Virus record (IMG/VR): IMGVR_UViG_3300009503_000022
Coordinates: 32,001 to 96,000 of that record
Direction: 5' to 3' (one strand)
From: a virus
Length of the DNA: 64,000 nt
In this document: positions 3,886-63,610 of the stretch, one piece after another
Layout: each line of letters begins with the position of its first letter
How positions within the stretch are numbered: the first letter of the stretch is position 1
Made by a program: the position numbers and the translations under genes
Notes under the pieces: generated by a model
Told to the model about the DNA's origin: nothing
Database searches by the model: none
What the model saw: the letters and a program-made list of their open reading frames with translations, nothing else

Positions 3886-4773
3886 TTATATTCCTTTACT
3901 AATATCTATAGACTTTTTTATAACTTGATTTATTCTAATATTATGTTTCCACTCTGCATATCGTCCTAAATATATTATATCAGGGTTTTCTATTAATTTT
4001 AAATTTTCATTTATTATTTTTCCATATTTTTCAATATAAAATGCAATATAAGATTTATGCAAATAATCATTATATTTATCAAAATCATCACCTAAAAATT
4101 CTATAACAGAAATTTTATCATTTATTCTTGTTACTCTATAAAAAGGTATAATATTATCTATAAAATAAACAAAATCATATTTTTTTGGAAAAATTAAATT
4201 TATTACAAAAAATGAAATTGGTTTATAATAAGAAAATTCATTTTCGATAAATGTATTTGTTAATTTAATAAATACTATAGCGGGAATAGTAGAAACAATT
4301 TTATCGTATTTAAACGTTGTAGATTTTGTATATATCAATTTATTATTAATATCTATTGAAATAATATCATCTATAATTATATCTTTTTCGAATTTCTTAT
4401 AAAAAAATTCTATTAATTTTTCATAATCAAATTTCCAATATCTAAAAGTACTTTTACCACTATTCATTATCCCGTCGATATTTACATCTCTACTTGTTTT
4501 CTTAATATAATCTTTTATTACAGAATCATTAAGTTTATCATGAAAATCACCATTATAATAATATCCTATATTACATACAGATCGATGAAATTTAACAAAT
4601 CTACCAATATCTCTAACAAATCTATTAGAATATTTATCTAAATGCAAATATCGGGGACCTAATTGAAAATTCGATCTTAACTGGCCCCCGACATCTTTTG
4701 TTATTATTTTATATTCTGGGTTATAAAACTTAAATATTAACCCAGCAATACCACCACCTAAAATATATTTCAT
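3886..4773 (-). CDS. FAD-dependent oxidoreductase (UDP-galactopyranose mutase / protoporphyrinogen oxidase-like)
   Basis: ILGGGIAGL dinucleotide motif, VGG, GPRYLH, YDKIVSTIP, YLGRYAEWKH. Confidence 0.75.
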   Translation of the reverse strand: MKYILGGGIAGLIFKFYNPEYKIITKDVGGQLRSNFQLGPRYLHLDKYSNRFVRDIGRFVKFHRSVCNIGYYYNGDFHDKLNDSVIKDYIKKTSRDVNIDGIMNSGKSTFRYWKFDYEKLIEFFYKKFEKDIIIDDIISIDINNKLIYTKSTTFKYDKIVSTIPAIVFIKLTNTFIENEFSYYKPISFFVINLIFPKKYDFVYFIDNIIPFYRVTRINDKISVIEFLGDDFDKYNDYLHKSYIAFYIEKYGKIINENLKLIENPDIIYLGRYAEWKHNIRINQVIKKSIDISKGI

Positions 4774-5783
4774 TTTTCAACCTTAATAGAATATTTTTCA
4801 CCATCTTTTATTATCTGAGCATTTTTTGGTTTATATTTATCTACATTTAAAATATAATGAATACGTTTTTTAATATAATTTTTATCATAATCGTACATTT
4901 TAGTATTAATAATTTTTTCAGCTACTTCATCTATTGTATATAAACCTTCACTAAAAATAGAAACTATAGTTTTAGATAAAGGTTTTCTCTTTACCTCGTT
5001 TGTTTTATTTTCGGTCATATTTACCTCCTTTTCATTTGTTTCAGTTAATTCATAATCAGGCGGAATTTTACATTCATCTATATATTTATTATCTAAACGT
5101 TTAAATATAAGCTCACCTCCTATATTAGATTTTAACGTTACTTTAGCTCCTTTCTTGGTCAAATATATTACGCCCATTTTAGCATCTTTTGCTAACACTT
5201 TATTCATATTATCTCCTCCTTTTATTATTATATTATATAATATATCACGAAATTTTCTCTTTTTTAACATACTAATCGACGCTTTGCTTCTTCTTATTCC
5301 AAATTGCGTTTTTAAACAATATTGTATATCTTTTAATTTATAACCCTCTAATCTTAACTTAAAAATATATGCCTCTATATCACTAAGACGTTTCGATATA
5401 AATTCTATAAGTTCATCATATTCTATTTTATCTATAATATCAGAATCAGATACAACTATTTTATCAAAAACTTCTTTACGAACATTTTTCCAATATGCGT
5501 GCGTTTTAACATCCTCGTCAAAATTTTTATCATCATTTTGATCTAAAGATTCAAAACATTTACTTTGATCATAAAGTTGTTTATATCTTCGGCGTAAACA
5601 AAAAGTGAGAAATGTTGAATATTTTGATATTTTAGAATTATACTTCTTATTTTTATATAATTCCCAACATTTTATCCTACCTTCTTGAACTAAATCTTCA
5701 AACGAATATCCTGGTATATTATAATTTTTAGCAATTGATTTTATCAATGGTTCTTCTTGTTTTAATAATTCTTCAAATGTCAT
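4770..5783 (-). CDS. Sigma-70 family factor with a C-terminal extension (possible winged helix)
   Basis: FEDLVQEGRI (region 2), KYSTFL, LSDIEAYIFKLRLEGYKLKDI (region 4); two internal in-frame SD+ATG at 5207 and 5018. Confidence 0.8.
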   Translation of the reverse strand: MTFEELLKQEEPLIKSIAKNYNIPGYSFEDLVQEGRIKCWELYKNKKYNSKISKYSTFLTFCLRRRYKQLYDQSKCFESLDQNDDKNFDEDVKTHAYWKNVRKEVFDKIVVSDSDIIDKIEYDELIEFISKRLSDIEAYIFKLRLEGYKLKDIQYCLKTQFGIRRSKASISMLKKRKFRDILYNIIIKGGDNMNKVLAKDAKMGVIYLTKKGAKVTLKSNIGGELIFKRLDNKYIDECKIPPDYELTETNEKEVNMTENKTNEVKRKPLSKTIVSIFSEGLYTIDEVAEKIINTKMYDYDKNYIKKRIHYILNVDKYKPKNAQIIKDGEKYSIKVEK

Positions 5784-18187: not shown

Positions 18188-19123
18188 TTATACTTCACTA
18201 CCCATAATAGTAGAATAAACATCTTGCGATTGACCTTCTCTATTTTTTCTTATAATTCTAATTTGTTCTGACCCACCTGCTTCAGTAATTTCTATAGGAG
18301 GATCGAATTCAAATATACAATTTGGATTTGCCATAGTTGTAAATTGAACTGCTTTAGTTACAAGACTTGACTCAGGTCCAACTTGAACTTCCCATTTACC
18401 AGCACCAGAAGCTGAACATATAATTCTAGTTAACAAAAATGTTTTACCTGATGTTACAAGACGAATATGATTACTTGTAGATCCCCCTGGAACATTAACA
18501 GCAGTATTATAATCACTTACTTCTGTTCCAGATACGTGTTTAACTACATATACATAAATAGGATTTGTTTCACTATTAGGATTAGAATCTTTAGAAATTT
18601 TAATTGCCGATAAACTTTGCTCTGCAATATCTACTTTTGCAGATCCACTACTAGTTATTTCTAATCTATTAGCATCATTTGAACCCGTCATTCTAACAAG
18701 TATTTTTCTATCAAGCGTCATTCTAGGAATACCAATATCGCCTTCATTAACACTATCAGGAGTAGTTTCATCGGCTAAAAATCCTATCGCATTTAATGTA
18801 TCTGTTTCAATAGTAAATGCACTATCGTCTTTATAAGATTTTAAAGAAATTTGTAATCTACCATTTTCGTCTGTCAATAATGGAGTTGCATCTCCATCCG
18901 AATATGTTGTTGGATTTGCTTCATATTTACCTGCAATAGCCAATGCAGTTGGAGTTGCTCCATAAGCACTATTTATTACTACAAAATCTAATGCATTAGT
19001 TTCATCTGTTATTTCAACATATATCGGATTATTTAAAGCATTTGCATTTAAATCTTTTGAAATCTTTACAGAATTCCCTTCGGATATACTATGTATTGGT
19101 AACGAAGCATTTTGATCTGCCAT
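18188..19123 (-). CDS. Putative virion fibre/decoration protein
   Basis: Internal repeat KISKD.N.N...NPIYV; beta-sandwich C-terminus. Confidence 0.5.
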   Translation of the reverse strand: MADQNASLPIHSISEGNSVKISKDLNANALNNPIYVEITDETNALDFVVINSAYGATPTALAIAGKYEANPTTYSDGDATPLLTDENGRLQISLKSYKDDSAFTIETDTLNAIGFLADETTPDSVNEGDIGIPRMTLDRKILVRMTGSNDANRLEITSSGSAKVDIAEQSLSAIKISKDSNPNSETNPIYVYVVKHVSGTEVSDYNTAVNVPGGSTSNHIRLVTSGKTFLLTRIICSASGAGKWEVQVGPESSLVTKAVQFTTMANPNCIFEFDPPIEITEAGGSEQIRIIRKNREGQSQDVYSTIMGSEV

Positions 19124-45408: not shown

Positions 45409-46962
45409 TTAAAATGTTACACCAAATGTTATAAATATCCAATTAATATCTAATGTTGGTTTAATATAAAATTTAACATCTATTTGTCTCGGTTCTAAAG
45501 GATTTTGTGTAACCTCTAAATCTCTAAATTCTACAATATCGTTTCTTCTAACTACTGCTCCCAATAAGAATTTTATAAACGCTGTTATATTAGCAATAGT
45601 TTCACTACCTAAATTTCTAGTATTTATAAACGCATTTGTTAAATTTCTTATTAAATATTCAGCTAAACCATCTTTTATCCTTGTAACTTTCAATTCTTGA
45701 GTCGCTACACTTGTTGGATCAGTTGACAAAGCATGCCTAACACGAAAATCACCTGCTTCTTTCTTTTCTATTATGCATACTCCATTTGATGCCATATTAT
45801 TCTTTTCTGCTCTTGTAAAAATATCTCTTATATCTTTAAACGATATAATAGATTTACCTGAAATTGGCTCTGCCCAAGTATAATTAGGATTACAAATTAT
45901 ACCTGCTAAAGCAGCCGCCAAATATGAACCATCTACAGTATAGTCTGTATTATTAATTGTATAAATCTGATCAGAAGGAGATAAATAAGCTACTCTATAA
46001 TGTTTAATAGATGTAGCTGCAGTTATATAATCATTAACATCAGTTGAATTTATAGGAGCCCCTATAATTGAAATTCTAAATTTCCTTTCAAGTAAAGAAG
46101 ACATTTGATCAACATGATTCTTTAAATACGAAATCAAACTATTTCCTGCTTCTAATCCCTTCATCAAAACTATAACATAACATCTCTCATTTTTTAAAGA
46201 ATCTATTGCTTCTTGCAAAGCAGTTACTGTATCATCTTTTGCTTGAACACATAAAACATAAGAAGCACCTTGTTGTTGACATATCTTCGCTCCTATTGAT
46301 AAAGTATTTGTTGATATATCATTTATCTCATACACTGATGTATTATCTGGAACTGTCGTCCAATTTGGTGCAACAGTTAACACTCCAGTAGTAGTATTAC
46401 TAACGATCAACCTTTCTTGACCAACACCTACTCCTGAAGTAATTTTTACATATTTTCCTTTATATTCATTAAGCGTCATTGTTAATCCTGTTGTCAATGT
46501 ATTACTAGTTCCTCCTGTTGCAGTACCTGTTAAAATCAAATTCGGAAATTCAGGTGAACCAAATAAAGAAAATATAGTATCTTGCCTAGTAGTTAAATAA
46601 GGTGCATAATCTGCATCCCCTTTAATATAAGTATAAGTTACATAATATACACTTCCTGTTATCGGTTCATCTCCTGCAGGACTCCAATCGACTTTATCAT
46701 TTGTTAATACATAATCTGTATCTTTTACATAAGTCTTTCCAGCTTTATCTGTAATAGATATTATTTCAAATACTGGAGTCTTTTTTAAATCATCTTGACT
46801 ATTTGCTGCACCTTTTTTAACTTGCTCGACTATTGTTAAAGTCTTTTTACCTAATCCAATAATCGCTGGTATAAAAGCCCCAGGCGGCGCAGCAGGCACT
46901 GTTACATCTGCAAATTGTACATATACACCTGGTTCAGTATATTGTGGTGTAAAAGTTGGCAT
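45409..46962 (-). CDS. Contractile tail sheath protein
   Basis: YTEPGVY N-term, AAALAG, GVCII, RHALST, PRQIDVKFYIKP..INWIFITF. Confidence 0.92.
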   Translation of the reverse strand: MPTFTPQYTEPGVYVQFADVTVPAAPPGAFIPAIIGLGKKTLTIVEQVKKGAANSQDDLKKTPVFEIISITDKAGKTYVKDTDYVLTNDKVDWSPAGDEPITGSVYYVTYTYIKGDADYAPYLTTRQDTIFSLFGSPEFPNLILTGTATGGTSNTLTTGLTMTLNEYKGKYVKITSGVGVGQERLIVSNTTTGVLTVAPNWTTVPDNTSVYEINDISTNTLSIGAKICQQQGASYVLCVQAKDDTVTALQEAIDSLKNERCYVIVLMKGLEAGNSLISYLKNHVDQMSSLLERKFRISIIGAPINSTDVNDYITAATSIKHYRVAYLSPSDQIYTINNTDYTVDGSYLAAALAGIICNPNYTWAEPISGKSIISFKDIRDIFTRAEKNNMASNGVCIIEKKEAGDFRVRHALSTDPTSVATQELKVTRIKDGLAEYLIRNLTNAFINTRNLGSETIANITAFIKFLLGAVVRRNDIVEFRDLEVTQNPLEPRQIDVKFYIKPTLDINWIFITFGVTF

Positions 46963-49270: not shown

Positions 49271-50038
49271 TTATATAGCAGATAATTCTTGTCTCCAGTT
49301 TGTTGTTATCGTATTATCATCCCATTTAACTCTATAAAAATTATTATTATGATCTATTCTTATTATAGTACCTATTCTATTTGTTCCTATTCTCCTCACT
49401 TTTTCCCCTAATTCAAAATTACTAACTTTATTATCTTGATATGTATATTGTCCAATCCATTCATTCGGTTGAAACTCATCTTCAAATCTAATTTTAGCTT
49501 GCACTTCTTTAAGAATATCTTCAATTTTATTTCTCTCATCTATAGCATTTACTGCTGCCTTAATTAATTCCCTTTCATCTCTAAAACTATTATCATCTTC
49601 CTCTTCTTGTATAAATAAATTATTAGCAGTATCTCTAACTTTTACCAAAGTACTTATATGAGTAATATAATTTTCAGATTGTCCTATATCTACCCAAACT
49701 TTATTTCCAACTATTTTACGAACTATTCCTGGTTCCATATCAGGCATTGAAGAAAATACAACTTTATCTCCAACCTTTAATCTAGCACTTTTAAGCATAG
49801 GAACCCATTGTTTTGATTTCGGATCATATACCCATTCGCTTCCTTCAGGAGGAGGAGTCGTCGGTTTTGCAGGCACTTGCGATTCTATCTCTATACCTTT
49901 ATCTCGTATAACTTTATTAACCAATTCAATAGCATCTTCTTCACCATATCCATATTCATCTACAAGTTTTCTTTTTATAGCATTAACCCCTATCCCTCGA
50001 TTATACCATTTTATTATATTAGATTCTAATCCTGGCAT
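49271..50038 (-). CDS. Modular protein with two SH3/KOW-like domains (putative head cargo)
   Basis: LKVGDKV..GIV..VWVD and FELGEKV..GTI..YRVKWDD. Confidence 0.55.
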   Translation of the reverse strand: MPGLESNIIKWYNRGIGVNAIKRKLVDEYGYGEEDAIELVNKVIRDKGIEIESQVPAKPTTPPPEGSEWVYDPKSKQWVPMLKSARLKVGDKVVFSSMPDMEPGIVRKIVGNKVWVDIGQSENYITHISTLVKVRDTANNLFIQEEEDDNSFRDERELIKAAVNAIDERNKIEDILKEVQAKIRFEDEFQPNEWIGQYTYQDNKVSNFELGEKVRRIGTNRIGTIIRIDHNNNFYRVKWDDNTITTNWRQELSAI

Positions 50039-50052
50039 AATTAAATCCTCCT

Positions 50053-53000
50053 TTAATAATTTAATATTTTTCTTAAATAAGAAGCAGCTTCAAATATCTC
50101 TTTTAAATCTAATTCTTCTATAGTTTTATCCTTTTCCTCTAAATATGCATTTAATTCCATTTCTATTATCTTCTTTGAATTATCATTTATTTTACTTGCT
50201 TTAACTTCATTAAAATATTCTTTTAATAAATTAAAAGCCGCCTTTAATTTAGGATTTTTAATAAATAACCAAGAAAATGGAGCAATAAAATCTATAATCA
50301 TCTTTAATGTCTCTTTAATTCCTGCTTCTTTCTCAATTCCATAATCTAATCTAGTCTTCAATTGAAATTTATCTTCTTCTTTACTTCTAATCATTAACCA
50401 TTTTCTATCTTCCATCGGTATTAAAGTAAATTCTCCCTTTACTTTATCAGTATTTAATCTAAATTTTCTTTTCTTATCTGACCATTCTAATATCTCTGCA
50501 TCTCCAATTGCATAAGTTTCAACTATTCCTGCTCCATATTCACCTTTAGGTATTTCACCTTCAAAATAAATATAATCTACTGGATGATCCTCTGTTTCTA
50601 TAAATAAAACCTTTTGTCCAGGTTCTGGTATTTTCCTCGTAACCCCTGATTTTAAAACACCATCTTTAAATATTCTCCAATCAAAATGTTTACCTGCCTT
50701 TTTTGCATAATGCAATTGAATCCCTGACTTGCCTTCTTCTCTAATTTTAGGTTTTGGTTCAGGAGTAATATCAAAATCTCTTTTTTTCTTATATTCTTCC
50801 AATCTATCATCTTCTTGAGCTTTTTTTAAAAAATATTCGTCTTCAACTTCTTGTAAATATGTAAACTTATTAAATATCTTAACACTTGATTCCAATTTCC
50901 AAGAAGCAGTTTTCAAAAATTTAGTAGTCTTATTTTGAATATCTTTTATTATTGCAGTAACACGAGGAGGTGAAATACCTAAAATCTCTGCAATCTCAAC
51001 TTGACTATATCCTGATACTAACAAATTAAATACCTTCTTACCTACATCTGTAAGAAGATTTAATATTTTATCAAATAAATCATTTACTATTACTTTTTCC
51101 TCAGGTGAATCATACTTAGATTCAATAATATTCTTTATTTTAATAGGAACATCTTTATCTTCATATATAACATCTTCTAAACTATATGCTATTGTATTTA
51201 CTATTTCTTTTTGAAGATATAAATCTCTTATTTCATCTTTTACTCTACCATCTAATTGGTTATATAACCACGTTGAAAATTTTCCTTTTTCTCTATCATA
51301 AGTATCTATTGAATGTAAAATAATTTCATCAATAATAGAAGAAGCATCATAAAACCCTGCTTTTCCTAATTTATTTTCAAATGGATACGCTAACCTTTTT
51401 AATTCAGGATAAATTTCGTTAAATATTTTTTCATCTTTCGTTTCTTTATATCTAATCACTTTTTCATCTAAATCTTCTATTGATGATTTTTTATACAACT
51501 TTTTAAGTACTTTATCTATTTTAGCATCTTCCTTCTCAAAATCAAATAATTTATCTTCATCTATTGGTAAACATACTAATCCTGTTTTTCCTGATAAACT
51601 ATACGGAACTCTTAATCCACCTGCTCTATGTAACGTACTAGTATCTAGCCTACAAGTATTTTCCTTTTTCGTAACTCCAGTAGTCAATCTTTTATCATTT
51701 TTATTTTCTATATATTCTTCTAAAGCTAATTTAATTGCTGTTCTAGCTTCATCTACATCTATTTCTTTTTTTAATATACCATAAACGTGAAATCCTTTTG
51801 AACCAGAAAATACTATCTTAGTATCAACTACATTATCCATTGTTTCTATTAAATCTTTAACCTCAAAAACTATATCCTTTAAATCATCCCAAGAAAATCC
51901 TTCTTTTGGATCTAAATCAACATATAAAAATGGAGTAGTATCCTTAAGAGAAAAATGCCATTCAACATTTCTACCATTATTTAATTTATCAAAATCTTTA
52001 ATATTTATCGGTTTTCCCTCTATCTTTCTTTGAACTATAGTATCATCAACTTTCTTAAATAAAGTCACATCAAGATCATACTTTAAATAAGTTTCTATAA
52101 TATCATCTTTAACAGTATCATAATACAAAAAAATCTCACCTTCATTAAGTCCTTCTTTATAAAATTCATTTGGTTCTACTATTATAGTTTCTGGATGCTT
52201 TGGTTTATAAGCATAAATTAAACTACTTTCTATTTTCATTGATTTACCTTCGTGATAACAAGCATTTTGTTCAAATTCATTAGTATAAATTGTCCATCTA
52301 TTTCTACCTTTATTTTTGGATTCATAAAGTGCTTTATCTGCTTTAGTAAATGAATCATCTATATTAGATTCTAACGGAGCAGCTCCTAAACTTATAGTCA
52401 CTGGTATTTCAGTTTGTTTAGTTTCTTCTTCAACTGTATTTCTTATCAATTCCAATAATTCTTTTAAATCCTCTTCATCATCTAATTCAATAAATATTAC
52501 AAATTCTTCTCCGCCCCATCTAACTATATTTTCTATATCAAGACTTTTAATTAAATCGGCAACTGTCTTTAATACCTCGTCGCCTTTATCGTGACCATAT
52601 TCATCATTAATTTGCTTAAAATGATCTATATCAGTTAAAATTATATAATTATTTTCTTCTAATAATCTTTCTTCATTATCCTCTAACCAATGCCTTGAAT
52701 ACAACCCAGTTAAAGCATCTGTATATAATCTTTTTTTCAATTCCTCGACTTCTTTTTGTAAATCTTTATTTTCATCTATTTCTGATTCTATCTTTCTTAT
52801 TTCAGTCGGATGAACTTCAGATATTATAGATCCATCTTCTAAAGGTTTATCCCACTTGACTACATAATCAACATCATAAATTGTTCCTCCTCGCTCTTCA
52901 GGAGCTATATCTATTATTGTTCCTGTATTATCAAAATTAATTGCCTCTATTTTAGTTCCCTTTTCATAAACTCCTTTTCGCGATTGAAAAGCTTTCAAAC

Positions 53001-56000
53001 GAATCACTTTTTCATTTTTATATATATTCTCATCAAATTTTTTCTTTCTTAAATTTTCATCTAATGTTTCTACTACATTATAATATTTATCTATAATCTT
53101 ATATATTTTCTCTGGATTTCTTAAAAATACAAATTCATCTCTTATTTTTAATTGATCAAAAGTAGTTATTTCCCCTTCTTCTATTCCATGTCTTTTAAAT
53201 AAACTTGAATAACATTGTTTTCTAACTAAATTTACATATTCGCTTTCTTTCTTTAAAAATTCATCTAATTCAGGATATTGCTCTTTAACATCTTTAATTT
53301 TCTTTTCTAAAACATCTAAATATTCTATCATTTTATTCCAATAAGGTTCATAAGAATCGTCCCATATAACTATCTTATTTTTTCCTGTATTCTTACCTAA
53401 TACAAGAGATTTGTGAGCATCTGTAGGAATTTTTCCAATCCCTACAGTTGCTGTATGTCCTGTATTTTTTAAATAAATATCTATAAATTGCTGTCCTAAT
53501 TTTTTGGCTTCTTCTATCGTAATAGGAATACTTATAAATATATTATCTCCACCTTCAAATATTACCTCTCCATTATACTTAGTAATTATTTCTATTATTT
53601 CTTTATTAGCATTTTTTATTTGATTAGATATATTTTTTGCTACTTCTGTATCTTTATCATAAATGGCTTCTTCTACTCTATCTCCAATATCATCACCATC
53701 AATGGCTATATAAACAAGATTACCTTTTTCTGATCTCTGTTTACCAATTTGAGCTTCTTTATGAAAACACTCTTTTCCTTCTGAATACAATACTATTCTA
53801 TCTGGTGAAATAGGTCCAACAACCACAGCAGTTCCTGCTATTCTTAAAGTATCTTCACCGGTTATATCTTTATAATAAACACCCCATTCCGGATCGTGTC
53901 TACTTTTTAGTCCTCTAGGAATTTGCTCATCATGTTTCCAATATAAAAATTTTCCTTCTACATCATCAACATAAGCACCTAAATCGACTAACATTGCATA
54001 ATCTGGTAATAAATCTAAACCTGAAACATCTACTTTATAAATATATTTACCAGGAAACTTTCCTGGTTCTTTAGAAACAAAAACAGATTCTTCTGGTAAC
54101 CAACCATAATCAAAAAATTGTTCCCCAGCTTCTGTTAATCCTTTTGTTTTTCTACCCACTAAACCCTCTTTCAAAATTATTTCTGGAGGAACATTTGTAC
54201 TATGATATAAATATTTAATAGCTTTCTTTTCTAATTCTTCAATCTTTTTCATTACTCCTTTATGAATAAGTCTAGGTTTCATATCCTTTATTTTTTGTAA
54301 AACTTCTTTTTTTAACTCATATAACATCTTAATTTCATCACCAGATGGAGAATATTTAATTGACCAATTTATTTCTCTTACGAGTTCCCATAAATTCCAA
54401 ATTATTAAATCAATAGTTTCACCTGTTGCTTTCATATTTAAAATATCTTTAAAATCTTCTTCTAATTCACTTATAGGTTTACCAATTTGAGCTTCTTTAT
54501 GAAAATATTCTCCTAACTTCATTTGTTCTCTTAATTCCCATATTTTAAATAATTCTGATTCTTGAGCTAAACTTGGACTCCATTGCATTCTTAATCCATC
54601 AAAATGAATCCAATCAACTATTTTATCTATAACATAAAATTTTTCAAAACCTTCTTTTGAATAAGCTTCTTCACCTTGTTTAATCAATTCTTCTATTTTC
54701 TTTATGTTTCTTTTTATAGGTTCTACTTCAACTCTTGTTGTGCCTCCAGTTTTTAATTTATTTAAATGATAAATTAATTCTTCTAAAATTTTATCTAATT
54801 TATCATCATCATAAATACCCTTAGATGCATCAATATAAACTTTTCTTAAATCAGTAAGAAATATTGCTTCTTTGTTTAAAAAAGCTCTTAATTGTTCTAA
54901 CTTATTATTATTTCCATATTGAAAAATATTTGCAATTCTAGACATTAACCAACCCTTTTCCTCAAATCCAGGTATTTGCTCAAGCCTTAAATCTTCTGGA
55001 ATTACTTTCTTATCCTCTCTATATCTTTCTATTCTTGGTTTTCTAATTATCCCTGTCATTTTATCTTCTATTTGTATCCATTTATTATCTTCAAACTTAT
55101 ATGCAGGTCCTTTTTTTATATTTACTTCTTCACCTTGTACTTCTACAATACAAGGTTCTTTAAAAGGATCAACCCAAATTCTACCATCTTCATCTTCAAA
55201 TACTTTATTTCTTTCTGCCCATTCTATAAATTCTAATCGTTCCTTATCAGTAAACCCTGTCCCAACCTTACCATTAAGCCTAAATATCCCTTCTTTATCT
55301 CTAAATGAAGTTAATATTGCGCCCATCTGTTCAGGATGCTTTTTACTTCTTTCTACTGCAACTACAACTAAATCAATAGATAAAATCGGTTTTACCTTAA
55401 CTATTTTATTATCATAATAAATTATAAGTCCTTCATAACCATATTTTTGAGGTTGTACAACCTTATCCCATAATTCGTCTACATCATTTAAATCAGCATT
55501 TTCAAAATATTCTGCTGGCTTTACATACTTTCCTTTGCTAAACAAATTTCTTAATCCACTAATTCTATATGATAAATCTTTATCTTGCCAATCAATTCCA
55601 TCTATACTTATAATATCAAATACTATTATCCTTATTCTTTCTTCATCTTCTTTAGTTTTCGGAGCCTTTAATAAACTCTGAGATTTTAAATAACTTAATG
55701 GAATACCATCTTCACTAACTCCATAAATTTCTCCAACTCCTATAAATTCTTTTAACGGTTTATTTTTTAATAATTCTGTAATTTCATCCGTAACAGGTAA
55801 ATCATAACGAATTGTACCTGCTCTAGTAACTGTTATTGTTCTACCATCTTTATATTCTATTCCAACTATTTCTCCATCTAATTTTACCGATATTGTAAAT
55901 TTCTTACCTTTTAATTTTTCTCTCAATTCATCTATAGTATAAAACTTCATCGACATTCTTTCTTTATAATCACTTACTATAGATGAAATTGGATTTTCTT

Positions 56001-56031
56001 TATCTATTTCTTTTTTAAATGCTAATATCAT
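50053..56031 (-). CDS. Polyprotein: ATP-dependent ligase + ART-like + mCpol + 2x SH3-like + GGDEF + LigD-type primase-polymerase + sigma-70 + LigD-type phosphoesterase
   Basis: KLDG/GEIY/VFDI/EGLII/VGTGF (ligase); YLYHST..EGL..ISPDRI (ART-like); IDGDDIG..GGDN..TVGIG (mCpol); DALTGL..DIDHFK.IND.YGH..GGEEF; VDLDP..SGSKGFHV..RVPYSL (AEP); GKFSTW..GYSQVEIAEILGIS (sigma); EYKKKRDF..QLH..HFDWR..EDHP..FEGEIP.GEYGAG (PE). Confidence 0.9.
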   Translation of the reverse strand: MILAFKKEIDKENPISSIVSDYKERMSMKFYTIDELREKLKGKKFTISVKLDGEIVGIEYKDGRTITVTRAGTIRYDLPVTDEITELLKNKPLKEFIGVGEIYGVSEDGIPLSYLKSQSLLKAPKTKEDEERIRIIVFDIISIDGIDWQDKDLSYRISGLRNLFSKGKYVKPAEYFENADLNDVDELWDKVVQPQKYGYEGLIIYYDNKIVKVKPILSIDLVVVAVERSKKHPEQMGAILTSFRDKEGIFRLNGKVGTGFTDKERLEFIEWAERNKVFEDEDGRIWVDPFKEPCIVEVQGEEVNIKKGPAYKFEDNKWIQIEDKMTGIIRKPRIERYREDKKVIPEDLRLEQIPGFEEKGWLMSRIANIFQYGNNNKLEQLRAFLNKEAIFLTDLRKVYIDASKGIYDDDKLDKILEELIYHLNKLKTGGTTRVEVEPIKRNIKKIEELIKQGEEAYSKEGFEKFYVIDKIVDWIHFDGLRMQWSPSLAQESELFKIWELREQMKLGEYFHKEAQIGKPISELEEDFKDILNMKATGETIDLIIWNLWELVREINWSIKYSPSGDEIKMLYELKKEVLQKIKDMKPRLIHKGVMKKIEELEKKAIKYLYHSTNVPPEIILKEGLVGRKTKGLTEAGEQFFDYGWLPEESVFVSKEPGKFPGKYIYKVDVSGLDLLPDYAMLVDLGAYVDDVEGKFLYWKHDEQIPRGLKSRHDPEWGVYYKDITGEDTLRIAGTAVVVGPISPDRIVLYSEGKECFHKEAQIGKQRSEKGNLVYIAIDGDDIGDRVEEAIYDKDTEVAKNISNQIKNANKEIIEIITKYNGEVIFEGGDNIFISIPITIEEAKKLGQQFIDIYLKNTGHTATVGIGKIPTDAHKSLVLGKNTGKNKIVIWDDSYEPYWNKMIEYLDVLEKKIKDVKEQYPELDEFLKKESEYVNLVRKQCYSSLFKRHGIEEGEITTFDQLKIRDEFVFLRNPEKIYKIIDKYYNVVETLDENLRKKKFDENIYKNEKVIRLKAFQSRKGVYEKGTKIEAINFDNTGTIIDIAPEERGGTIYDVDYVVKWDKPLEDGSIISEVHPTEIRKIESEIDENKDLQKEVEELKKRLYTDALTGLYSRHWLEDNEERLLEENNYIILTDIDHFKQINDEYGHDKGDEVLKTVADLIKSLDIENIVRWGGEEFVIFIELDDEEDLKELLELIRNTVEEETKQTEIPVTISLGAAPLESNIDDSFTKADKALYESKNKGRNRWTIYTNEFEQNACYHEGKSMKIESSLIYAYKPKHPETIIVEPNEFYKEGLNEGEIFLYYDTVKDDIIETYLKYDLDVTLFKKVDDTIVQRKIEGKPINIKDFDKLNNGRNVEWHFSLKDTTPFLYVDLDPKEGFSWDDLKDIVFEVKDLIETMDNVVDTKIVFSGSKGFHVYGILKKEIDVDEARTAIKLALEEYIENKNDKRLTTGVTKKENTCRLDTSTLHRAGGLRVPYSLSGKTGLVCLPIDEDKLFDFEKEDAKIDKVLKKLYKKSSIEDLDEKVIRYKETKDEKIFNEIYPELKRLAYPFENKLGKAGFYDASSIIDEIILHSIDTYDREKGKFSTWLYNQLDGRVKDEIRDLYLQKEIVNTIAYSLEDVIYEDKDVPIKIKNIIESKYDSPEEKVIVNDLFDKILNLLTDVGKKVFNLLVSGYSQVEIAEILGISPPRVTAIIKDIQNKTTKFLKTASWKLESSVKIFNKFTYLQEVEDEYFLKKAQEDDRLEEYKKKRDFDITPEPKPKIREEGKSGIQLHYAKKAGKHFDWRIFKDGVLKSGVTRKIPEPGQKVLFIETEDHPVDYIYFEGEIPKGEYGAGIVETYAIGDAEILEWSDKKRKFRLNTDKVKGEFTLIPMEDRKWLMIRSKEEDKFQLKTRLDYGIEKEAGIKETLKMIIDFIAPFSWLFIKNPKLKAAFNLLKEYFNEVKASKINDNSKKIIEMELNAYLEEKDKTIEELDLKEIFEAASYLRKILNY
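53739..54505. repeat. 29-bp exact direct repeat (53739-53767 and 54477-54505) encoding FHKEAQIGK
   Basis: gtttaccaatttgagcttctttatgaaaa occurs twice, 738 bp apart and in frame. Confidence 0.95.
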
Positions 56032-56189
56032 TTTGTCAATATTATTAACATTGGAGTAGTATCACTTGGTACAACTGCAGTTATTACCCAACCTGCATCC
56101 ACAAGCGTTTTTAAATCACTAACTGATCCATCAACTGTATCTTTAGTATTACCTTGCCTATCTGATTCTACTATTTTTACATCAGCCAT
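56028..56189 (-). CDS. Small hypothetical protein (53 aa)
   Basis: Manual: MADVKIVESDRQG..; SD AGGAGGAG; ATGA overlap with the polyprotein start. Confidence 0.65.
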   Translation of the reverse strand: MADVKIVESDRQGNTKDTVDGSVSDLKTLVDAGWVITAVVPSDTTPMLIILTK

Positions 56190-56234
56190 TTCGCTCCTCC
56201 TACATCATAATTTAAATTAGTCAATATATTTATA

Positions 56235-56411
56235 TTATTCGAAATTTAAATTTTCTTTTCGTCTAAATTCCAATTTCCTCTTATATCTTCTTGCTTGAGA
56301 AATAGTAGGAAAACACTTCTTCATACCCTCGTCTGTAATTACACACCAACGTCTTCCTTCTTCGCCTTCTTCTTTCTTTATCCTTAATTTTTCTTGTCGT
56401 AACCAATACAT
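56235..56411 (-). CDS. Small basic protein (58 aa)
   Basis: Manual: MYWLRQEKLRIKKEEGEEGRRWCVITDEGMKKCFPTISQARRY..; SD AGGAG. Confidence 0.55.
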   Translation of the reverse strand: MYWLRQEKLRIKKEEGEEGRRWCVITDEGMKKCFPTISQARRYKRKLEFRRKENLNFE

Positions 56412-58472
56412 TTATATCTCCTCTTTAATCAATTCTTTAGCTGCATTAACAAATAAATTAAAATCATCAACTTTAACTTTTTTACTTATTCTAGAAAATA
56501 TCTCATCCATATATCCTTCAATAATACTATCATAATTTATATCTATTTTTTTATTATCTTCAGTCGCTATTTTCTTTAATAAATTAGCATCTTCAATAAC
56601 AGCATTAACAATATCGTCTAATTGAATATTTGCTTTAATAAATTCTTTAATAGACGATTCTTTTTCAATAGTATCTTTAATCTCTTTTTTTATTTTCTTT
56701 TGAGTTTTATCATCAAATTCTTTTTTATACTTATCCTTTGCTTTTAAAAATTTTTCTATTTCTTTATCTAACTCTTTTTTCTTTTCTTCAGTTACTTCTT
56801 CATCTACCTTAATTATTTCAGTTGGATGAACTTCAGTAATTGTTTCTCCTGCTACTGGAGTATCCCATTTTATAATATAATCTATATCTCCAGGTTTTTC
56901 ATCATTTTTATAAATTACATATCCCATAAGCCCATTCGTCTGTAATTGAACTCTATCATATACTTCAAATTCGTCTTCTTCTATAGCTGATGTTAATAAT
57001 AATCTATATTTCATTACATTTTCATCTTTATACTCGTTCATTTTAAATTTAAACTCAGTATTATCATCTAAAGATGCAGTCACTATTCCTAATCTTGGAT
57101 CAAATCGTCTATAAGTATAAATATCAGGACTATTTTCAAATTGAAATTTATCACCTAATTTTAATTCACTAAACTTAACATATCCTTGTTTTTGATATAT
57201 TTTATCGTAATCTTGAATAGATTCTTTTTTCTTCATCTTTTTATCTTTTTTTATTTCTTTATCATAAGATTTTTGTAATTTTTTTTCAGATTTAGATTTA
57301 TCTATTTTCCTTTCCATATTCATATTAACACCCTCGGATAATTCTGGTAATTCTCTAAATTTAACAGTAGAATTATCAGAAACATTTAAAGTATCTATAT
57401 TAATAGTTGTATCTGATTTTCTATTTAATGAAGATCTTAAACTTGCTATTTTCCTCAATCTATTAGGATATTTCTCTAATAAATCTTTAATATTGCCTCT
57501 TAAACCAGTTACATCCCCTTCTATATTTGTAACATTTCCTTCAATATAAGAAACATCTCCTTTTATGTTAGATACATCTCCTTTTAAATAAGAAACATTT
57601 CCCCTTATATTAGATACATCTCCTACAATATTTGAAGCATCTCCATATATATTTGAAGCATCTCCATATATATTTGAAGCATCTCCATATATTTTAGATT
57701 TATCCCCTGTTACATTTTCATCATTAATCAATCTACTTTTTTGTGATTTTATTCTTAATGAAGACTTTTTCGTTCTTTTAAATTTTTCAAATAAATCTGG
57801 ATTTTCACTAATAAACTTATTTACACCATCCATAAACCATACATGCCACCCAGAACCTTCTGTTTCTAATTTCTTTTTTATACTTTCCCAACCTTCTTCA
57901 AAATAATATTCTGCTTCTTTTTGAGCTTTTTTATCACCTTTATAAGCAGGATCTATAATTAAACTATCCATAAGATCAATTGCATATTCTTGTATTGGAG
58001 TTTCAAGTTTAATAACATCCGATTTTCTTAATTGCATATTTCCTCCTAAATTTGCAAAAGATTTCTCTAATACATCTTGAGGATTTTCTATAACCATTTT
58101 ATCTCGAGGAACTTTTTGCTCTTCAGGAAATACAAAAAGATCATCTTTTAAAATAGTATCATTTTGAGATTTCCTTTCTAATAATCTTTTTACAAAATCT
58201 CTCCATTCTTCCTTATTTTCTTCTACCATTCCATCAAATATTTCTTTTGCTTTATCTTCTGTAACATCATAAATATTCATAAAATACTTTACTATTTCTG
58301 AATCTATATCATCGGCAATTTTTTCTAAAGTAAATTCGCTTCCTGTATCTAATTCAGGATTAGATGATATATCAGGATTAGTTTTAAAATAATCCAACTC
58401 GTGAAATTTTCCTGAATCATGTGGATATTTAATCTCATCAAATCCACCTTGAGCTTTACGTCTCAAATTCAT
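56412..58472 (-). CDS. Second modular polyprotein-like head protein (beta-helix repeat, tandem SH3-like domains)
   Basis: GD(A/V)SNI heptad repeat; EVHPTEI domain shared with the 1992-aa protein; many K-x-A/S linkers. Confidence 0.6.
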   Translation of the reverse strand: MNLRRKAQGGFDEIKYPHDSGKFHELDYFKTNPDISSNPELDTGSEFTLEKIADDIDSEIVKYFMNIYDVTEDKAKEIFDGMVEENKEEWRDFVKRLLERKSQNDTILKDDLFVFPEEQKVPRDKMVIENPQDVLEKSFANLGGNMQLRKSDVIKLETPIQEYAIDLMDSLIIDPAYKGDKKAQKEAEYYFEEGWESIKKKLETEGSGWHVWFMDGVNKFISENPDLFEKFKRTKKSSLRIKSQKSRLINDENVTGDKSKIYGDASNIYGDASNIYGDASNIVGDVSNIRGNVSYLKGDVSNIKGDVSYIEGNVTNIEGDVTGLRGNIKDLLEKYPNRLRKIASLRSSLNRKSDTTINIDTLNVSDNSTVKFRELPELSEGVNMNMERKIDKSKSEKKLQKSYDKEIKKDKKMKKKESIQDYDKIYQKQGYVKFSELKLGDKFQFENSPDIYTYRRFDPRLGIVTASLDDNTEFKFKMNEYKDENVMKYRLLLTSAIEEDEFEVYDRVQLQTNGLMGYVIYKNDEKPGDIDYIIKWDTPVAGETITEVHPTEIIKVDEEVTEEKKKELDKEIEKFLKAKDKYKKEFDDKTQKKIKKEIKDTIEKESSIKEFIKANIQLDDIVNAVIEDANLLKKIATEDNKKIDINYDSIIEGYMDEIFSRISKKVKVDDFNLFVNAAKELIKEEI
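57490..57720 (-). repeat. 21-bp coding tandem repeat (7-aa GDASNIY)
   Basis: Three perfect copies at 57628-57690 within about 11 degenerate units. Confidence 0.9.
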
Positions 58473-62629: not shown

Positions 62630-63610
62630 TTACACAATTGTAAACTTGGTAATACCAGCGGTATTGTGAATACCAATACCAATCTGTTCCCAACCTACTA
62701 TATCATACTGATTTTTTGGAATATTATCAAATATCTTAACTTCAACTGCTTTCCTTTCTGGAATTCTTCCTAATTTATCAGGTGTCGTAAATACATATAC
62801 TGTTTTTGCAGGACATCTTGTAGTTACAAGCATCCTTGCTCCATATATAGAACCAAACAACCCAGTTTCAACTATTGTATTCAACGAAACCTGATCTAAA
62901 TCTGTAGAATTCCACTTTAAAATATCTGCATATTGCTCTGGATTCATCATCACTCCACCAACAATTAACTGATTTGCTAAGATCTGCTTATATGCATCTG
63001 CAAGAGCATATCTAGTTACTGAAGAAGCAGTAAATGGAGTATTAGGTCCATTTACGACTGCTGCCTCCATAACTTTAACTATCTCATCATCTTCCGCAAT
63101 TGCCATAGCAATAGCAACCCTCTCTTTACCTCTATCAAATGCAGGATATCTCCTGATTTGAATTTCTTCCCATTTTAATTCATGATCAATTGAAATTGGA
63201 AATGTAGGGAATTGCACCCTCTTTATATTTGCTTGAAATCTAGGAGCCTCTCCTCTTGCTGCAACTACTACTGCTCCAAATTCTGGAATATCCAAATCAT
63301 AAATTGGAAATTCCCCTTGAGGTATTTCATCTACCAGTAATACCCTATTTCTTCCAACTGCTACATAATCTAATCTACTCTTTAGAGGAACCTGCATAGC
63401 AAATGCAACCCTCTTTAAACCATTAGGTCCAGTAAATATAGCATTAAAAGCTTTCTCAGCTTTTTCAATCATCGCAGATGTAGGAACTACTGGCGATGAA
63501 GCTGTCCTTGAAAATCCATCTTCTCCAAGAACTGATTCAGAAATTTTTAATAAATTTTTAATAAACTCGTCTTTCTGTCTAGAAGATAAATTACTTAATT
63601 TCCCTATCAT
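62630..63610 (-). CDS. Major capsid protein (HK97 fold)
   Basis: PLKSRLDY..GR..LLVDEIPQG..P.YD, EDDE, VMMNP..YADI, G.IYGA, EQIGIGIHN; followed by a terminator. Confidence 0.85.
   Translation of the reverse strand: MIGKLSNLSSRQKDEFIKNLLKISESVLGEDGFSRTASSPVVPTSAMIEKAEKAFNAIFTGPNGLKRVAFAMQVPLKSRLDYVAVGRNRVLLVDEIPQGEFPIYDLDIPEFGAVVVAARGEAPRFQANIKRVQFPTFPISIDHELKWEEIQIRRYPAFDRGKERVAIAMAIAEDDEIVKVMEAAVVNGPNTPFTASSVTRYALADAYKQILANQLIVGGVMMNPEQYADILKWNSTDLDQVSLNTIVETGLFGSIYGARMLVTTRCPAKTVYVFTTPDKLGRIPERKAVEVKIFDNIPKNQYDIVGWEQIGIGIHNTAGITKFTIV

Follow-up and report, generated by a model that had tools for sequence, protein, structure and literature searches.

The open reading frame and its source

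We analysed a 64,000-nucleotide stretch of viral DNA (the window), which corresponds to bases 32001 to 96000 of the 110,355-bp linear IMG/VR record IMGVR_UViG_3300009503_000022 (CheckV completeness, 76%). The G+C content of the window is about 26%, the GC skew is strongly negative, and almost every gene lies on the minus strand. Between the genes for the major capsid protein and the tail sheath is a single minus-strand open reading frame (ORF; 50053 to 56031, including the stop codon) encoding a 1,992-residue protein, designated P0001. Eight modules are recognisable in this protein, seven of them with profile support: an ATP-dependent DNA ligase, an ADP-ribosyltransferase (ART)-like domain, a minimal Cas10-like nucleotide cyclase (mCpol), a two-part β-rich module, a GGDEF domain, a LigD-type archaeo-eukaryotic primase-polymerase (AEP), a sigma-70 module, and a LigD-type 3'-phosphoesterase (PE). 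An earlier, sequence-only reading of the window had stated that no described protein with this combination was known. Consistent with this, a search for the architecture among proteins of 1095 to 3486 residues in a collection of 5.8 billion sequences returned no match, the closest protein being P0093.

The frame begins with ATG and runs for 1992 codons without an internal stop, as had been read from the letters alone. The same stretch is contained in two hot-spring metagenome runs from 2017 (X1 and X2), both of which are possibly sources of the record, so that their independence is limited. No RNA run containing the stretch was listed. In X1, one 9.1-kb Logan contig extends across 49800 to 56500 with zero differences. 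In X2, the ORF is covered by two contigs that overlap by 30 nt, and the frame again is open; here a two-base variant at 53505 to 53506, inside the mCpol domain, produces one synonymous change and the replacement K843E. The variant implies that at least two phage strains were present in the sampled springs. Apparent joints of 21 to 24 nt, seen when contigs were aligned to the stretch, were matches of unrelated contigs and were disregarded. That the ORF is intact in both assemblies is a strong argument against a chimera, and we reject that idea: P0001 is a genuine single ORF.

Domain composition of P0001

Profile searches bore out the earlier assignments of a ligase (aa 1 to 357), mCpol (771 to 893), GGDEF (1100 to 1250), AEP (1280 to 1500), sigma-70 regions 2 and 4 (1520 to 1705), and PE (1740 to 1880), with intact catalytic motifs. 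All module coordinates given below are on the minus strand of the window. The ligase occupies aa 1 to 357 (54961 to 56031; PF01068/PF04679) and is comprised of a nucleotidyltransferase domain and an oligonucleotide-binding (OB) domain, without the N-terminal DNA-binding domain. Pfam analysis returned DNA_ligase_A_M at aa 31 to 204 (1.5e-11) and A_C at aa 235 to 341. The region aligned to the archaeal nucleotidyltransferase and OB domains of the Pyrococcus ligase 2cfm (E, 4e-14), keeps the lysine of motif I (KxDG), and is 42% identical to the N terminus of P0093.

The AEP domain (aa 1280 to 1517; 51481 to 52194; PF21686, PF01896) was identified by a Pfam match to LigD_Prim-Pol (PF21686) at aa 1362 to 1515 (4e-13). 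Alignment with the polymerase domain of Mycobacterium tuberculosis LigD (Mt-PolDom; 2iru) revealed that the DxD motif, the SGxKGxH motif, and the third Asp all are conserved, so that the catalytic Asp and His residues are kept. Identity to the corresponding domain of P0093 is approximately 45%. The PE domain (aa 1737 to 1890; 50362 to 50823; PF13298, TIGR02777) matched PF13298 (LigD_N) at aa 1773 to 1871 (1.8e-16), TIGR02777 (7.6e-30), and PDB entry 3p43 (1.8e-23). Its H..H.D.R and DHPxxY motifs conserve the catalytic His, Asp, Arg, and Tyr residues.

P0001 therefore holds the three activities of LigD (ligase, AEP, and PE), with their catalytic residues, in one polypeptide. The same three catalytic domains form a single polypeptide in bacterial LigD (M. 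tuberculosis Rv0938 and Pseudomonas aeruginosa LigD), and the NCBIfam LigD models match P0001 in three stretches. Unlike LigD, the three domains of P0001 are split by approximately 900 and 220 residues of unrelated modules, and the protein is phage encoded within a head gene module. It also scores far under the equivalog cut-offs of the LigD models (191 versus 989 bits for NF007210, 104 versus 144 for TIGR02777, and 49 versus 228 for TIGR02779).

Two nucleotide cyclase domains lie between the ligase and the AEP. The first, mCpol (aa 772 to 893; 53353 to 53718; PF18182, NF033576), matched PF18182 at aa 774 to 889 (1e-18) and NF033576 with 52 bits, against a cut-off of 40. The domain aligned to the OptS protein of the Panoptes system (9mnr/9nwn), and the DGDD and GGD metal-binding motifs are present. 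The two proteins thus are homologous minimal Cas10-like cyclases with conserved metal-binding motifs; they differ in that the P0001 domain is embedded in a phage protein and that no effector partner (a 2TM-beta or CARF-TM gene) was detected by homology beside it (neither Pfam nor PHROG families matched the adjacent ORFs; hidden Markov models [HMMs] of defence systems were not searched). The second cyclase is a GGDEF domain with a preceding short coiled coil (aa 1088 to 1250; 52282 to 52770; PF00990, TIGR00254). PF00990 matched at aa 1103 to 1245 (1e-30), covering profile positions 2 to 161 of 161; TIGR00254 scored above its cut-off, and many diguanylate cyclases in the PDB matched at approximately 1e-21. 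Inspection of the sequence revealed the active-site motif GGEEF and no RxxD inhibitory site (I-site) five residues upstream of it. A search of INPHARED returned no nucleotide matches to the stretch, and its protein matches were limited to the GGDEF domain.

The sigma-70 module (aa 1535 to 1715; 50887 to 51429; TIGR02937, phrog_1740) is of the two-domain (regions 2 and 4) extracytoplasmic function (ECF) type. It scored 45.4 bits against TIGR02937 (sigma70-ECF; cut-off, 42.9; 6.3e-12) over aa 1535 to 1701, and 49.9 bits in the genome scan. Regions 2 and 4 each matched Pfam below the gathering score, and the PHROG sigma-factor family phrog_1740 matched at 2e-8. Another ORF of the sigma-70 family (4770 to 5783, minus strand; 38.9 bits, just under the cut-off) adjoins the replication genes, and a second sigma-like match, at 18235 to 18573 of the genome and hence outside the window, contains stop codons. 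No RNA polymerase gene was found in the 110-kb record; the phage therefore appears to rely on the host polymerase and several sigma factors of its own.

The segment previously called ART-like (aa 606 to 750) has no Pfam match. When aa 358 to 770 were searched against 1.84 billion representative proteins, 77 homologous clusters were retrieved, and all but one weak match aligned to aa 604 to 754 (53770 to 54222), which we take as the domain. At 50% identity, this unnamed family has approximately 77 clusters and no Pfam model. Most of its members are stand-alone proteins of 145 to 175 residues, and longer ones are fused to NUDIX domains, BspA-type leucine-rich repeats, or ART-PolyVal; family members have weak HMM matches to PARP and Tpt1. 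In an alignment of 34 sequences (A1), the sole residues that are invariant or nearly so are the His of YHxT, a Gly, and the Asp of LVDxGAY, and a full set could not be assigned for any of the ART clade signatures considered (the H-Y-E and R-S-E triads and the R-H-R-R tetrad of Tpt1). An AlphaFold (AF2) model built from A1 had a mean predicted local distance difference test score (pLDDT) of 90. The PDB entries retrieved with this model by Foldseek were nearly all ADP-ribosyltransferases (best E, 1.6e-3), and so were the top 45 or so rows of a Foldseek-independent VIA search (best Z, 6.6). The latter neighbours comprised KptA/Tpt1 (Z, 6.6), DarT (DarT1; 5.7), and pertussis-like toxins (5.4), together with CARDS toxin, an Rhs ART toxin, and Scabin. 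On the basis of the model and its neighbours, we accept at modest scores that aa 604 to 754 are predicted to adopt the ART fold, in agreement with the earlier call, and regard the family as a candidate new ART clade.

The module at aa 941 to 1082 (52786 to 53211) had been described as two SH3-like domains (aa 954 to 1080). A conserved two-part β-rich module does exist at this site, and the SH3 fold name was not confirmed: an AF2 model from two sequences is all-β with a pLDDT of 58, too weak for a fold search, and neither Pfam nor an Atlas search gave a usable match. The module is paralogous to aa 422 to 557 of the 686-aa protein encoded nearby (BLASTP E, 7e-13; 30% identity over 147 residues) and is present as a single copy in P0093 (alignments A3 and A2); a 255-aa protein encoded downstream resembles it weakly. 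Two segments have no assignment. Residues 358 to 603 (54223 to 54960), helical by the sequence-only account, have no homologue in Pfam or among the 1.84 billion representatives bar one weak match. For the C-terminal tail (aa 1891 to 1992; 50056 to 50361), which includes a hydrophobic stretch, no relatives were detectable, and P0093 has no such tail.

Relatives and gene neighbourhood

The nearest relative, P0093 (1199 residues), is comprised of a ligase, one β module, an AEP, a helical region, and a PE, in the same order as in P0001. From this comparison, the helical/ART/mCpol block, the GGDEF domain, and the sigma module look like insertions in a conserved frame of ligase, β module, AEP, and PE. 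Four more distant relatives were found: P0002 (2752 residues), in which a ligase, ASCH, an AEP, and a PE follow one another at intervals; P0003 (2771 residues; AEP, DJ-1/PfpI, and PE); P0094 (1478 residues; topoisomerase IB, VanY, AEP, and PE); and P0004 (1470 residues; DJ-1, PE, and 2H). What unites these five proteins (1199 to 2771 residues) with P0001 is a homologous PE, 39 to 55% identical to that of P0001, and most of them have an AEP and/or a ligase in the P0001 order. In contrast to P0001, all five lack mCpol, GGDEF, and the ART-like domain, and no sigma module was detectable in them; their accessory domains are DJ-1/PfpI, 2H/LigT, ASCH, topoisomerase IB, and VanY.

P0002 was the only distant relative that could be placed on DNA. 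Its locus (L002; IMGVR_UViG_3300031885_000041) has the order large terminase, portal (homologous to that of the phage studied here), a 478-aa ORF, an HNH endonuclease, and the giant gene. The portal gene of L002 (4246 to 7362, plus strand) carries an insertion of approximately 370 residues (aa ~344 to 730) that matches thymidylate synthase, PhoH, and terminase PHROGs and is likely an intein or homing-endonuclease signature; the gene directly before the giant gene is of the HNH/endonuclease VII type. Searches for related loci in viral contigs with P0001, the tail sheath, or P0093 gave no relatives, and neither did a search of metagenome contigs with P0093; alignment A2 gave two distant ligase matches only.

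The gene for P0001 lies in a block of structural genes. In transcriptional order, the portal gene (593 aa) is followed by three small ORFs, the gene for a 753-aa protein, a 165-aa ORF, and the major capsid protein gene (62630 to 63610). Eight ORFs without matches, the 686-aa protein gene, and two small ORFs separate the capsid gene from the giant ORF, after which come four ORFs, one of them weakly tail-terminator-like, and the tail sheath gene (45409 to 46962). Genes for a DNA polymerase, the DnaB helicase, another helicase, and an exonuclease are located at 1 to 14 kb of the window, at least 36 kb from the giant ORF. The earlier description of the gene as lying between capsid and neck genes, far from the replication genes, agrees with this arrangement of capsid and sheath flanks.

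The first 270 or so residues of the 753-aa protein match head-maturation protease families (no sequence match was found in the PDB), and we refer to it as the protease-scaffold protein. Its gene (L003 1169 to 3430, minus strand; genome 96169 to 98430) also encodes a scaffold-like, Lys/Glu-rich C-terminal part of approximately 480 residues that contains a duplicated EKPKTEKEEEK unit; the protein has motifs of the linker type described below at aa 268 and 545. Immediately upstream of the giant ORF, an apparent gap of approximately 380 nt (56028 to 56411, minus strand) is occupied by ORFs of 58 and 53 aa, each with a good ribosome-binding site. The shorter one, the 53-aa ORF (56028 to 56189, minus strand), has a strong GGAGG site, and its TGA stop shares bases with the start codon of the giant ORF (ATGA); the giant ORF has no Shine-Dalgarno sequence of its own. 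This organisation fits cotranscription with the structural genes and low, coupled translation. A promoter and terminator scan found fewer promoter-like sites than in shuffled sequences and was uninformative.

The 686-aa neighbour (56412 to 58472, minus strand) contains the β-rich double module, an N terminus (MNLRRKAQ) with a linker-type motif at aa 3, and a 7-residue GDxSNIx repeat. The repeat region (aa 256 to 326; 57495 to 57707, minus strand) has about nine tandem GD(A/V)SNI(Y/K/E) units and is β-helix/fibre-like. Such 7-residue repeats are probably the reason why this protein and a 205-aa ORF (genome 109573 to 110190) weakly match "minor head protein / tail needle" PHROGs.

Linker motifs, proposed packaging, and candidate roles

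A repeat of nine residues, FHKEAQIGK, is present in two exact copies in P0001, at aa 510 to 518 (54478 to 54504) and at aa 756 to 764 (53740 to 53766), the second copy being part of a 17-residue linker between the ART-like domain and mCpol. A similar sequence, FLKKA (in EYFLKKAQ; aa 1734 to 1738; 50818 to 50832), lies between the sigma module and the PE, and looser versions are found at aa 385, just after the ligase, at aa 600, before the ART-like domain, and at aa 1899 (IEKEA), after the PE. Sites at aa 600 and 756 flank the ART-like domain, those at aa 1734 and 1899 flank the PE, and pieces cut there would equal the stand-alone ART-like and PE homologues in size.

To avoid circularity, the pattern F[HL]K[EK]A was defined from P0001 alone and searched in the remaining 33,065 residues of the proteome. 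One match was observed, against 0.09 expected; it lies in the protease-scaffold protein, at residue 268, which is where the match to the protease domain stops. Slight widening of the pattern added the N terminus of the 686-aa neighbour and a second site in the scaffold part. In the relatives of P0001, an analogous motif ([IL]SKRA/LRRKA) recurs at domain borders and at extreme N termini (the latter, for example, in P0094 and P0003). The N-terminal sites are hard to account for as recombination scars and are easily explained by propeptide removal. The version [LF]SKRA, defined from P0002, had two matches in small ORFs just downstream in L002, against 0.014 expected.

P0001 can be compared with two groups of known proteins. 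Polyvalent proteins are chains of several effectors that are encoded with virion genes and for which entry into the host alongside the DNA has been proposed (Iyer, Burroughs, Anand, de Souza, and Aravind 2017, PMC5512222). P0001 resembles them in that many unrelated effector domains share one polypeptide, and ART, GGDEF, and archaeo-eukaryotic Primpol already are listed as components in PMC5512222. The gene neighbourhood also is alike, P0001 being flanked by capsid and sheath genes with portal and protease genes upstream. It differs from them in that no methylase or helicase module was detected and that its core is the LigD trio, with mCpol and a sigma factor added. In PMC5512222, the word "sigma" is absent, and a term search, which did not include mCpol, showed no passage that puts a DNA ligase domain in a polyvalent protein. 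No paper in the searched literature connects polyvalent proteins to LigD or to a sigma factor; in this sense, the content of P0001 is new.

The second group comprises Alt and the internal proteins of T4 and the ejection proteins of SPN3US and phiKZ, which are head-packed cargo, trimmed at a short motif by the prohead protease and ejected with the DNA; protease trimming of ejection proteins is established in SPN3US and T4 (PMC10052503, PMC5694885). T4 Alt is an ART, as is, in predicted fold, the ART-like domain of P0001. The cleavage motifs of these phages are L/I-x-E and A/S/G-x-E, whereas the one proposed for P0001 is a basic x-K-[KE]-A, and their cargo is encoded by separate genes, in contrast to the nine-module chain of P0001, which is known from sequence alone.

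The sequence-only reading had proposed that P0001 is made late, packaged, cut, and delivered. We also favour a variant of the polyvalent proteins that is packaged and protease processed, and judge the case for it to be evenly balanced. Packaging, cleavage, delivery, and every cellular role set out here are what we infer. Transcription of the P0001 gene would accompany that of the structural genes, coupling to the 53-aa ORF would give a low level of translation, and the protein would be incorporated into the prohead. There, the head-maturation protease (the N-terminal domain of the 753-aa protein) would cut it at [FL]-x-K-[KE]-A linkers at domain borders, and the pieces would exit the capsid together with the DNA. 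Ligase, AEP, and PE could then heal ends of the incoming genome that are broken or 3' blocked and seal them, damage of this kind being a possible result of hot-spring heat or host nucleases; it is plausible that the trio would allow such healing ahead of any phage gene expression. The ECF-type sigma module, and perhaps the ART-like enzyme, may redirect the host RNA polymerase.

The two cyclases would act through cyclic nucleotides that disturb immunity based on nucleotide signals; a Panoptes-type guard, for example, might be kept silent. In the host, mCpol constitutively makes 2'3'-cyclic di-AMP (2'3'-c-di-AMP) or cyclic triadenylate (cA3), a signal that restrains a toxic effector for as long as phage sponges or nucleases do not remove it (PMC12657230, PMC13577387). 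The 2'3'-c-di-AMP of the host enzyme holds the toxin in check (PMC12657230, PMC12657218), whereas a phage copy would serve the attacker's side, and mCpol delivered by a phage could restore the Panoptes signal.

We offer a more elaborate version only tentatively, since as a whole it is rather unlikely. It would make P0001 a member of an undescribed lineage of capsid cargo with a dispersed LigD trio, in which the prohead protease cuts at a basic-Ala code (SKRA / [FL]xK[KE]A) and the linkers double as recombination joints for swapping cassettes. The delivered ECF sigma factor would start early transcription with the host polymerase, and two constitutive synthases, mCpol and the GGDEF domain that lacks the I-site, would pre-empt Panoptes-like guards with an "all is well" nucleotide.

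Several observations weigh against packaging and processing. Late expression, presence in the virion, and cleavage have only circumstantial support, namely the position in the head block, the coupled start, the relative in L002, the linker motif, and the precedents. The motif itself was picked by inspection, after looking at the data. Its loose form, hydrophobic-x-[KR]-x-[AS], is only weakly enriched (14 observed versus 8.5 ± 2.8 expected), and we therefore left it out of the evidence. When k-mers of the head-region proteins were compared without bias in a reduced alphabet, the 7-residue repeat of the 686-aa protein dominated the result and the linker was not recovered. Between aa 893 and 1734, the borders of mCpol, the β module, GGDEF, AEP, and sigma carry no tight motif. 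Across the whole of P0001, no Pfam family of the MuF/SPP1 gp7-like, zincin metallopeptidase, or ArdC-type anchors matched at E <= 1; a divergent anchor could sit in aa 358 to 603 or 1891 to 1992. No Ku (PF02735) was found in the 110-kb record, which is 76% complete. Nor did we find in it any polynucleotide ligase besides the ligase domain of P0001, which would suit an intracellular role in replication or repair.

The linkers can also be read in another way. At the nucleotide level, both copies of FHKEAQIGK agree over the full 27 nt (29 when flanking bases are counted), and they enclose an in-frame cassette of 738 nt; given the same peptide, nine identical codons have a probability of P = 0.015 under the codon usage of this genome. 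The linker therefore may also, or instead, be a recent recombination joint, which also weighs against processing. P0001 would then be packaged and ejected as one intact giant, with no protease site in the linker. The virion RNA polymerase of N4, which is packaged unprocessed according to PMC5512222, sets a precedent, and the helical/ART/mCpol, GGDEF, and sigma segments behave as inserted modules relative to P0093. The motif type, however, also occurs in the protease-scaffold protein, which is not a paralogue, and at the N terminus of the 686-aa neighbour, and the extreme N-terminal sites of P0094 and P0003 make little sense as recombination joints. We consider intact delivery to be distinctly unlikely.

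We give a similarly small chance to the notion that P0001 never enters the virion and is a late cytoplasmic multi-enzyme, which would repair, prime, and seal phage DNA before or during packaging, with its accessory regulators; the gene position would then reflect timing only. Its being the sole DNA or RNA ligase detected in the record suits this role, as do the repair nature of LigD-type polymerase and PE, which could act on replication or packaging intermediates, and the failure to identify a capsid-targeting or MuF-like domain. Against it, another phage ligase may exist, because the record is only 76% complete, or the host LigA may serve; moreover, it is not obvious what a sigma factor, an ART-like enzyme, and two synthases of signal nucleotides would do during packaging, P0001 has the linker motif in common with the head protease-scaffold protein, and the relative in L002 adjoins a portal gene too. 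Finally, an assembly chimera or a chance read-through across several genes, to which the singleton architecture and the metagenomic source might point, is highly improbable given the unchanged X1 contig, the open frame in X2, and the order of ligase, β module, AEP, and PE in the one polypeptide of P0093.

Even if P0001 is not packaged, the giant proteins based on the ligase/AEP/PE core (P0093, P0002, P0003, and P0094) are an undescribed family of phage repair proteins, and the ART-fold family could be defined from its clusters. If P0001 is packaged and cut, as in the reading that we favour, this phage would be the first with a complete kit for DNA end healing and sealing in its capsid and the first with a virion-delivered sigma factor. 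It also would have the first mCpol on the phage side, the enzyme that bacteria use in Panoptes to detect phage sponges, and hence a route to counter-counter-defence. The linker motif, if it is a cleavage code, would be a readable signal for finding capsid cargo in uncultured phages.

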